A DNA stretch of 64,000 nt, taken from assembly GCF_051903065.1 (NCBI RefSeq), contig NZ_CP178438.1. One strand, written 5' to 3'. This document shows, in pieces, positions 37,827 to 40,026 of the stretch. Within the stretch, counting starts at the first letter, position 1, and the number at the start of each line of letters is the position of its first letter. This DNA is from Escherichia coli (GTDB taxonomy: Bacteria > Pseudomonadota > Gammaproteobacteria > Enterobacterales > Enterobacteriaceae). The translations under genes were made by a program, and so were the position numbers. Under the pieces are notes generated by a model. That model was given only the letters and a program-made list of their open reading frames with translations. It made no database searches and was not told the DNA's origin.

Positions 37827-38210
37827 TTATTCATAGCGTCTGCTACGTGCGGGACGAGGTCGGGTGTACCAGGCAATGCTGCCTAACAATGCCCCGACCA
37901 GAGCCATAAATAAAAATCCGACCAGTGCCCCTAACCACTTTCCCGCGGTAGAGCCTAAATCGCTTTCAAATCCCGACACGGGGGCATCGGGGATCCGGCT
38001 CATCACCCAGATGTAACGCGCCATTGCCCAGACGAAATAGCCACACCATGTATAGAAAGCCCACAAAGCCAGTTTGCCGCCAGGGCTGCGAGAGAGTCTC
38101 TCTTCCATCTTTGTCGAACCGTATTCCATTTTGAGATAACCCGGAAAATTCAGACTTAGTACTATTATGTGATAAAAGTCACATTTTTCCACATTGAATG
38201 AGCCAGTCAA
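37827..38210 (-). CDS. yedR: Inner membrane protein YedR
   Basis: ORF with two transmembrane segments; the reference length is about 121 aa, so the start is uncertain. Confidence 0.65.
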   Translation of the reverse strand: MTGSFNVEKCDFYHIIVLSLNFPGYLKMEYGSTKMEERLSRSPGGKLALWAFYTWCGYFVWAMARYIWVMSRIPDAPVSGFESDLGSTAGKWLGALVGFLFMALVGALLGSIAWYTRPRPARSRRYE

Positions 38211-38349
38211 GACTCAATCATTTTTTGAACAAATAGATAAATTTTGCGCAACGGCAGTGAATACAGGAAAAATCGTTTTGAGCGATTTTATTTATCTTTG
38301 ATATCGGCTTTATTAATTCATTTAATCAATATATTAGCACTGAATACAA

Positions 38350-38447
38350 TTATACCTTTTTATTTTTCTGTGTCATGATGCCTCCGTTATTAGCCTTTTA
38401 TCGTCTTGTTTATATTTTTTGGGCCGGCATGATGCCGGCTTTTTTTA
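38350..38447 (+). ncRNA. rseX: Candidate small RNA (RseX-like) ending at a strong intrinsic terminator
   Basis: Hairpin GCCGGC-ATGAT-GCCGGC followed by TTTTTTTAT at 38423..38448 in the yedR-yedS intergenic region; the 5' end is not determined. RseX is recalled to map to this intergenic region in K-12. Confidence 0.3.
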
Positions 38448-38757
38448 TGCCTTCATTAATGTGCGCGTGATCACACCAGCCGTTTAGCGCAACAATCATT
38501 GATACCCCCTATCTTTCCGCTCAACTCATAACATATTGATATGCATTTATAATCTTCATGAATGCTTATATTTAGAATTCATAATTCTGAATTATATTAA
38601 ATAGATTGGAAACATTTTGAAATCTTTTAAATATATTTGTTACATGTAATCCTTAAAATAAAATGAACTTCATAGAATAGTATCCAAATGTGCTTTTTTT
38701 TGGATAACGGCACTTATTGATATATTCATGAAGATTATAATCACAAGGGAATACATA

Positions 38758-39945
38758 ATGAAAAGAAAAGTTCTGGCAATGCTGGTCCCGGCGTTATTAG
38801 TTGCTGGCGCAGCAAATGCGGCTGAAATTTATAATAAAGATGGCAATAAACTGGATTTGTACGGAAAAGTAGCGGGCCTGCACTACTTCTCTGATGATGC
38901 TGGCAGCGATGGCGACATGTCATATGCCCGTATCGGTTTCAAAGGTGAAACTCAGATCGCTGACCAATTCACTGGTTATGGTCAGTGGGAATTTAACATT
39001 GGCGCAAACGGTCCTGAAAGCGACAAGGGTAATACCGCAACGCGTCTGGCATTTGCAGGTTTCGGCTTTGGTCAGAATGGTACTTTCGACTATGGTCGTA
39101 ACTACGGTGTCGTATATGACGTAGAAGCATGGACCGATATGCTGCCAGAATTTGGTGGCGATACCTATGCTGGCGCTGACAACTTCATGAACGGTCGTGC
39201 TAATGGTGTTGCAACCTACCGTAACAATGGCTTCTTTGGTCAGGTCGATGGCCTGAACTTTGCTCTGCAATATCAGGGTAATAATGAAGATGATGGATTA
39301 TTCGGTCAGGAAGGTTCTGGTAACGGTAATGGCCGTAAGTTAGCTAAAGAGAACGGCGACGGCTTCGGTATGTCCACTTCCTATGACTTCGACTTCGGTT
39401 TAAGTCTGGGTGCTGCATATTCTAACTCTGACCGTACCGACAATCAGGTTCACAAAGGTACTCATAACACTCGTTATGGAGATCGCTTCGATGCAACTGC
39501 TGGCGGTGAAACAGCAGAAGCATGGACCGTTGGTGCTAAATACGACGCTAATAACGTTTACTTAGCAGCTATGTATGCTGAAACCCGTAACATGACTGGT
39601 TACGGTGATGCTGATGCCATCGCTAACAAAACCCAAAACTTTGAAGTTGTTGCTCAGTATCAGTTCGACTTTGGTCTGCGCCCGTCCATCGCTTACCTGC
39701 AATCTAAAGGTAAGGATTTAGGCGGTGTAAATAGTGATAACTTCGACAGCCAGGGTAATCATCACTACACCAACAAAGATCTGGTTAAATATGTTGATAT
39801 TGGTATGACCTACTACTTCAACAAAAACATGTCCACCTATGTTGATTACAAAATCAACCTGCTGGACAACGACGACGACTTCTACAAAGAAAACGGCATC
39901 GCTACCGATGATATCGTTGCTGTGGGCTTAGTCTACCAGTTCTAA
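38758..39945 (+). CDS. yedS: General-diffusion outer-membrane porin (OmpC/OmpF/PhoE family), intact
   Basis: Signal peptide [21 protein letters not shown] followed by [16 protein letters not shown] and C-terminal ...VGLVYQF; RBS AAGGGA upstream of the ATG at 38758. Confidence 0.8.
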
Positions 39946-39987: not shown

Positions 39988-40026
39988 AGCCTGAGTTCGT
40001 CCCTCATCGAACTCAGGCTTTTTTAT
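39988..40026 (+). terminator. Rho-independent terminator of the porin gene
   Basis: 12-bp perfect stem AGCCTGAGTTCG / CGAACTCAGGCT followed by TTTTTTA. Confidence 0.65.

Follow-up and report, generated by a model that had tools for sequence, protein, structure and literature searches.

An intact yedS general porin gene in Escherichia coli at the locus annotated as a pseudogene in K-12

Here we describe a gene in a 64,000-nucleotide stretch of Escherichia coli DNA, called the window throughout. It is almost certainly an intact yedS gene, coding for a porin that belongs to the enterobacterial general-porin family but is not one of its major members. The yedS open reading frame runs uninterrupted from 38758 to 39945 on the plus strand (395 codons plus stop), and neither the ORF list nor the translation nor the alignment with K-12 revealed a frameshift.

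Results

Gene, signals and start site

The yedS coding sequence and the elements around it are as follows.

38168-38183: CRP-like site TGTGATAAAAGTCACA, a perfect palindrome, between drpB and rseX (pattern search)
38357..38446, plus strand: rseX small RNA gene (Rfam RF01401, 96.7 bits against a gathering score of 50, E = 2e-13)
38421-38441: terminator hairpin of rseX (terminator scan)
38460..38475, strand not assigned: CRP-like site TGTGCGCGTGATCACA, between rseX and yedS (pattern search)
38609..38664, plus strand: candidate regulatory stretch with OmpR-box-like half-sites and a weak sigma-70-like promoter (scans near chance)
38745..38751, plus strand: ribosome-binding site AAGGGAA, 6 nt ahead of the ATG at 38758 (sequence; the RefSeq start agrees)
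38758..38820, plus strand: signal peptide of 21 residues, cleaved between ANA and AE (alignment with the signal peptides of K-12 OmpC, OmpF, PhoE and OmpN)
38758..39945, plus strand: yedS coding sequence, general porin (ORF, profiles, alignment, model)
39988..40026, plus strand: intrinsic terminator with a 12-bp stem and an 8-nt loop, then TTTTTTATT (terminator scan, folding)

The entry in the ORF list is longer (38728..39945, 405 aa) and the internal ATG at 38758 yields the 395-aa product. A start at the upstream in-frame ATG (38728) would lengthen the product by 10 residues, and this ATG lacks a ribosome-binding site like AAGGGAA. RefSeq annotates the 1188-nt version with the start at 38758 in E. 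coli ECNB21-M121 (WP_047623682.1), the DNA of which is 100% identical at yedS. Removal of the signal peptide leaves a mature protein of 374 residues. Its N-terminus is conserved with K-12 OmpC, OmpF, PhoE and OmpN, and its C-terminus reads ...VGLVYQF; YedS possesses a cleavable Sec signal peptide as well as a C-terminal aromatic beta-signal with a terminal Phe. The terminator hairpin (39988-40019) starts 43 nt past the stop codon, 7 of its 12 stem pairs are G-C and a T run follows. Its folding energy was -21.5 kcal/mol (z = -6.5), and none of 200 shuffled sequences folded as well.

A sequence-only reading of the window had claimed a complete 395-aa porin with signal peptide, terminal YQF and its own ribosome-binding site and terminator. 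All of these elements were located at the coordinates listed above, and a premature stop or a frameshift was absent. A sequencing artefact is unlikely, given that 174 public contigs encode the identical protein and that identical DNA is present in independent complete genomes.

YedS has the sequence and the predicted fold of a general porin

YedS matched Pfam PF00267 (Porin_1) with 471.8 bits against a gathering score of 23.7; residues 27-395 covered the full profile. It passed NCBIfam NF007841, an OmpC model of the 'subfamily' and not of the equivalog type, with 541.3 bits (cut-off 484). The equivalog cut-offs for OmpF (446 vs 583 bits) and PhoE (442 vs 599 bits) were not reached. Among the K-12 paralogues identity was highest to OmpN (73%), followed by OmpC (65%), OmpF (62%) and PhoE (61%). 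When YedS was aligned with these four porins the constriction residues of OmpF, i.e. K16, R42, R82, R132, D113 and E117, were invariant; in the numbering of the YedS precursor these are K37, R58, R96, R147, D127 and E131. The PEFGG motif on L3 is located at residues 130-134 and the terminal YQF is kept. The lysine which PhoE carries at the equivalent of OmpF G131 has a role in anion selectivity. At this site YedS has a glycine (NGR) whereas PhoE has the lysine (TKR).

By sequence, the closest solved structure is OmpK37 of Klebsiella pneumoniae (6v78, E = 2e-145), then Omp36, OmpK36 and OmpC. An AlphaFold2 model calculated with a 58-sequence alignment as input (pLDDT 78.6, pTM 0.78) predicted 16 barrel strands and an N-terminal piece which completes the last strand. 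Low model confidence was confined to the signal peptide and loops L4 and L5. A Foldseek search with this model retrieved 6v78 (TM 0.92 on target) with OmpC and OmpK36 next; TM scores on target were 0.90-0.94 for OmpK37, OmpC, OmpK36, OmpF and PhoE. Pfam and NCBIfam profiles, the alignment with OmpC, OmpF and PhoE, and the model with its Foldseek matches thus bear out the earlier assignment as an OmpC/OmpF-type general porin.

The yedS locus in the window and in K-12

Upstream of yedS lie dcm, yedJ and drpB (yedR) on the minus strand, then rseX on the plus strand; hchA (plus strand), hprS and hprR are located downstream. The gene order in K-12 MG1655 is the same, with rseX just upstream and 'pseudogene yedS b4496' annotated at that place. 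The window gene thus shares the flanking genes of K-12 yedS and belongs to the yedS locus. The 5' 480 nt are nearly identical to K-12 yedS and DNA identity in the flanks is 91-100%. In the alignment K-12 yedS has two lesions. A CAG to TAG change creates an amber codon at window positions 39241-39243 (codon 162, Q162), and 1 bp is deleted at about window position 39420 (codon 221). That yedS is disrupted in K-12 had been put forward in the sequence-only reading; the MG1655 annotation and both aligned lesions confirm it.

The gene for RseX, an Hfq-binding sRNA, immediately precedes yedS and has the same orientation, an arrangement which mirrors the pairings of ompC with micF and of ompN with micC in K-12.

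Intact yedS is ordinary in E. coli

The exact YedS protein belongs to a 90% cluster with 1201 members. In a search of 5426 complete E. coli genomes with the full 1.9-kb query, i.e. the gene plus its conserved flanks, 1291 matched at ≥95% and 6 at ≥99%. With the variable central 521 bp, 643 complete E. coli genomes (~12%) matched at ≥95% and 8 at ≥99%. Each of the other intact yedS alleles is found on 1000 contigs or more.

We examined 16 E. coli loci, 15 across the similarity ranking of the 1.9-kb search and one from an O157:H7 genome taken from the 521-bp search. Nine were intact, with alleles of 352, 357, 371, 387, 395 and 404 aa. The other seven were disrupted: the K-12 type, an O157:H7-type deletion (twice), an IS3 insertion (twice), an IS1 insertion together with a frameshift (once) and another frameshift (once). 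The choice of loci leaned to suspicious rows, so that nine versus seven shows variety and not frequency.

Therefore, intact yedS is ordinary in E. coli and K-12 represents one of several independent losses (K-12, O157:H7, IS1, IS3). Because the gene was lost independently in several E. coli lineages it is dispensable. The contrast with K-12 is no discovery, since intactness is not unusual and K-12 is but one of the lineages which lost yedS. The intact gene, the pseudogene state in K-12 and the relevance for carbapenems are already known.

O157:H7 strain 2-6-2 and strain 110, which has the identical sequence, carry the allele class of the window (96.5% DNA identity). Their yedS is inactivated by a 1-bp deletion of its own at about window position 39363 (codon 202). 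In addition, the drpB annotation of each genome records a frameshift.

Divergent alleles and selection at the yedS locus

dN/dS ratios of the window yedS were calculated according to Nei-Gojobori against Escherichia sp. E1V33, E. whittamii, E. albertii, Escherichia sp. MOD1, two other E. coli alleles and two Citrobacter sequences. The overall range was 0.05-0.15. In the external loops dN was 2-16 times that of the rest of YedS (barrel, L3 and periplasmic turns), and dN/dS was 0.07-0.26, i.e. below 1. The optimal-codon fraction, a rough measure, was 0.73 for yedS compared to 0.91 for ompC, 0.79 for ompF, 0.64 for ompN, 0.52 for phoE and 0.34-0.55 for neighbouring genes. dN/dS and codon usage indicate that YedS is a translated, selected and long-maintained protein.

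The E. coli yedS alleles have the signal peptide through residue 23 in common and their flanks are nearly identical. The mature proteins encoded by the other E. coli alleles are 52-88% identical to that of the window; for the intact alleles of 352, 357, 371, 387 and 404 aa the range is 52-83%. At least three lineages may be distinguished, an OmpN-like one with PEFGG (395-404 aa), an Enterobacter-like one (387 aa) and one with VEWGG in place of PEFGG on L3 (352-371 aa). No NCBIfam porin cut-off was reached by alleles of the VEWGG lineage, which in the tree branch off outside OmpC, OmpF, PhoE and OmpN. Most E. coli alleles are more distant from the window allele than are those of Escherichia sp. 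E1V33 (97%), E. whittamii (95%) and E. albertii (94%). Its class is common to several Escherichia species, and the gene has repeatedly been knocked out.

Such a pattern of alleles would be compatible with diversifying or frequency-dependent selection acting on a surface protein. A tentative and less likely reading is that the yedS locus represents a balanced polymorphism of long standing; the pattern would be expected of a cassette-like surface receptor on which phages, colicins or immunity exert frequency-dependent selection. The polymorphism may span at least three deeply divergent porin lineages between a fixed 5' end coding for the signal peptide and a fixed terminator. A balanced polymorphism at yedS was not described in the literature searched.

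A step further, the main selected role of YedS might be that of a variable surface structure, e.g. a phage or colicin receptor, an immune target or an adhesin, and not that of an additional channel for diffusion; in that case diversifying or frequency-dependent selection would maintain the polymorphism of the locus. We consider this improbable as the main role. It would explain six intact allele lengths with shared signal peptide and flanks at a single locus, the concentration of allele differences in the external loops, the recurrent independent knock-outs and the sharing of an allele class with E. albertii, E. whittamii and Escherichia sp. E1V33. However, barrel and constriction are strictly conserved, which argues for selection on the channel too, and even in the loops dN/dS stays below 1. 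Surface structure and channel are compatible and not mutually exclusive roles, and a general porin remains our preferred reading of the gene.

Regulation and expression

The region upstream of yedS (38200-38800) has a G+C content of 24-36%. Since 24-30% was found in the promoter region, yedS is probably silenced by H-NS. CRP-like TGTG-N7-TCACA matches numbered four in the 64 kb against 0.58 expected, and three of the four belong to the two sites which flank rseX. The K-12 counterpart of the 38460 site (position 2033766, assigned to yedS) is included in a Footprint-seq preprint table of TGTGA..TCACA-type sites (PMC12871828), which we take to be CRP sites. In the window, both sites flanking rseX are putative CRP sites.

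Between 38609 and 38664, the half-sites GAAACA, GAAATC and GTTACA are phased by 10 bp in an OmpR-box-like manner and overlap a weak sigma-70-like promoter candidate (TTGTTA-16-TAAAAT, 38637-38664). A promoter scan of the region upstream of yedS was at chance level (6 found, 6.1 expected). For the OmpR-like half-site pattern 2 matches were found against 0.85 expected, a weak and marginal enrichment. The promoter-like and OmpR-like sequences are candidate sites and should be taken as leads only.

MicF-dependent control of YedS was reportedly described by Warner in 2013. We observed no pairing of the 5' seed of MicF (nt 1-33) with the translation-initiation region of yedS; the energy of -7.7 kcal/mol was worse than that of shuffled sequences. 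The positive control, MicF with ompF, gave -27.1 kcal/mol (z = -4.5). Similarly, pairing of RseX nt 1-60 with the yedS initiation region was not predicted, and the RseX-ompC control reached z = -2.9. Direct control of yedS by MicF or RseX is not claimed here because seed pairing was absent while the ompF and ompC controls worked.

In K-12 hns mutants rseX and its surroundings are derepressed, and rseX is undetectable unless hns is deleted (PMC8313858). A K-12 transcript designated 'yedS (ompS1)' was repressed 2.5-fold upon induction of sigma-E (PMC2731931). By analogy with Salmonella OmpS1 and OmpS2, it is rather likely that yedS is quiescent in the laboratory.

Is yedS then an intact but silent, decaying gene, never meaningfully expressed in this strain and without effect on permeability? 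A very AT-rich upstream region, the silence of neighbouring rseX as long as hns is present, the lack of a promoter which stands out in the scan and the recurrent loss of yedS across E. coli are all compatible with decay. However, the dN/dS of 0.05-0.15 against four other Escherichia lineages and Citrobacter points to continuing purifying selection. Codon usage is biased towards the level of ompF, well above that of the neighbours; no damage is seen in the ribosome-binding site, the signal peptide, the pore residues or the terminator; and the K-12 yedS transcript is measurable (PMC2731931). We consider a silent, decaying gene improbable. We continue to regard yedS as a maintained general porin gene.

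Orthology and the ompC label

Among the best 80 loci of a contig scan, close relatives of YedS came from other Escherichia species (88-97%) and from Citrobacter (78-81%), after which identity fell to ≤69%. With YedJ and DrpB of the window as tblastn queries, a yedJ-adjacent porin gene proved to be conserved in Escherichia, Citrobacter, Enterobacter, Lelliottia, Buttiauxella and Pluralibacter. A neighbour-joining tree puts these porins into one group, which neighbours the OmpN clade but is separate from it and lies at a distance from OmpC, OmpF and PhoE. A Salmonella ompS1 locus was not among the best 80 loci of the contig scan; the single Salmonella match among these did not adjoin yedJ and grouped with OmpN.

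That the window gene is the OmpC gene itself, as the RefSeq label 'ompC: porin OmpC' has it, is ruled out for practical purposes by synteny and identity: PGAP gives the identical gene the name ompC because the protein passes the 'subfamily' model NF007841, but true ompC adjoins micF and rcsD and is not located between drpB/rseX and hchA, YedS shares only 65% of its residues with K-12 OmpC and is nearer to OmpN, and in the tree it groups with the yedJ-adjacent porins, apart from OmpC. The label on yedS is a family-level name and no statement of orthology.

Other features of the window

Over 58 kb the window differs from E. coli ECNB21-M121 by 18 mismatches. In that genome an IS903B insertion with a 9-bp target duplication splits a gene for a family-9 glycosyltransferase. 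The insertion is absent from the window (58195-58203), where the gene is an intact ORF of 371 aa (57882-58997, minus strand).

The island between fliE and yedK contains a tandem duplication of ~1.96 kb with 89% identity (13413-15369 and 15367-17327). In the related genome this island carries a gene for a leucine-rich-repeat protein, GNAT acetyltransferase genes, a frameshifted DUF5503 gene and an integrase fragment.

A giant ORF for an Ig-like-domain protein of 2685 aa with a TTG start is located at 49563-57620 on the plus strand. It has internal repeats which are 86% identical (52673-53454 and 53282-54063), and its counterpart in the related genome has an internal stop and carries a pseudogene annotation. 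The ORF adjoins a tRNA-Asn gene (49252-49327), of which a second copy is present at 63628-63703.

Discussion

How might YedS work? The protein would be exported by Sec, and cleavage between ANA and AE would release the mature form of 374 residues, which BAM would insert into the outer membrane through the C-terminal ...VYQF signal. YedS is expected to assemble into a trimer of 16-stranded beta-barrels. Every pore would be narrowed by L3 (PEFGG, D127, E131) opposite the basic cluster K37/R58/R96/R147. Such a geometry would allow a non-specific, probably cation-preferring diffusion of small hydrophilic solutes, beta-lactams included. Loops L4, L5 and L7, longer than in OmpC and OmpF, are also the parts in which the alleles differ. 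The AT-rich upstream region, shared with H-NS-repressed rseX, suggests that yedS is silent under laboratory conditions, with expression presumably low. A silenced YedS would matter mainly when it is derepressed or when OmpC and OmpF are both lost.

We infer an effect of YedS on antibiotic uptake, a relevance which the sequence-only reading had already suggested for an additional porin. As quoted in two later papers, functional YedS was tied to carbapenem susceptibility (Warner et al., 2013, AAC 57:1935, as cited in PMC4048246 and PMC11267920), and to this extent the suggestion is supported. An intact, derepressible yedS might constitute a back-up entry route for beta-lactams which is absent in K-12 and O157:H7, and would be of relevance for resistance by porin loss. 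The 'ompC' label in RefSeq can mislead automated calls of porin loss. The mere presence of an intact yedS in the window matters little; it is a common, annotated state and the link to carbapenem entry has been published. The divergent alleles and the recurrent inactivation of yedS could be a useful system for the study of selection on surface proteins.

How does YedS compare with known porins? OmpC and OmpF have in common with YedS the family and the fold, the type of signal peptide, PEFGG on L3, the basic cluster and the C-terminal YQF. However, identity is only 62-65%, the genes occupy another locus and the neighbouring sRNA is micF, whereas it is rseX in the case of yedS. In addition, the external loops L4, L5 (~12 extra residues) and L7 (~13 extra residues) of YedS are longer. 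OmpN is the closest K-12 paralogue (73%) and OmpK37 the closest solved relative (6v78; TM 0.92, 64% identity). Together with OmpS1 and OmpS2 these two are counted among the 'quiescent' porins. OmpN and OmpK37 share the constriction residues and a long L4 with YedS. L5 and L7 of YedS exceed theirs by ~12 and ~13 residues, respectively, and the ompN locus is a different one, between uspF and ydbK and with micC.

In Salmonella the porin OmpS1 is quiescent: H-NS/StpA keep it silent, and LeuO and OmpR activate it. In the OmpS1 model LeuO relieves the silencing by H-NS (PMC4264507). In one E. coli paper ompS1 is used as a synonym of yedS (PMC2731931), and some database entries name yedS alleles 'outer membrane protein S1'. 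The model of H-NS and LeuO control fits the AT-rich region upstream of yedS; regulation of yedS by LeuO, H-NS and OmpR would be in analogy to OmpS1.

The nearest counterpart is E. coli YedS itself (b4496, formerly b1964-b1966), which has the same locus and the same flanks as the window gene. The K-12 version differs by the amber codon at Q162, by the deletion in codon 221 and by loops L4-L7, which come from another allele. In the clinical isolate of Warner et al. (2013), as far as the work is quoted in later papers, YedS is an intact OmpC-like porin just as in the window.
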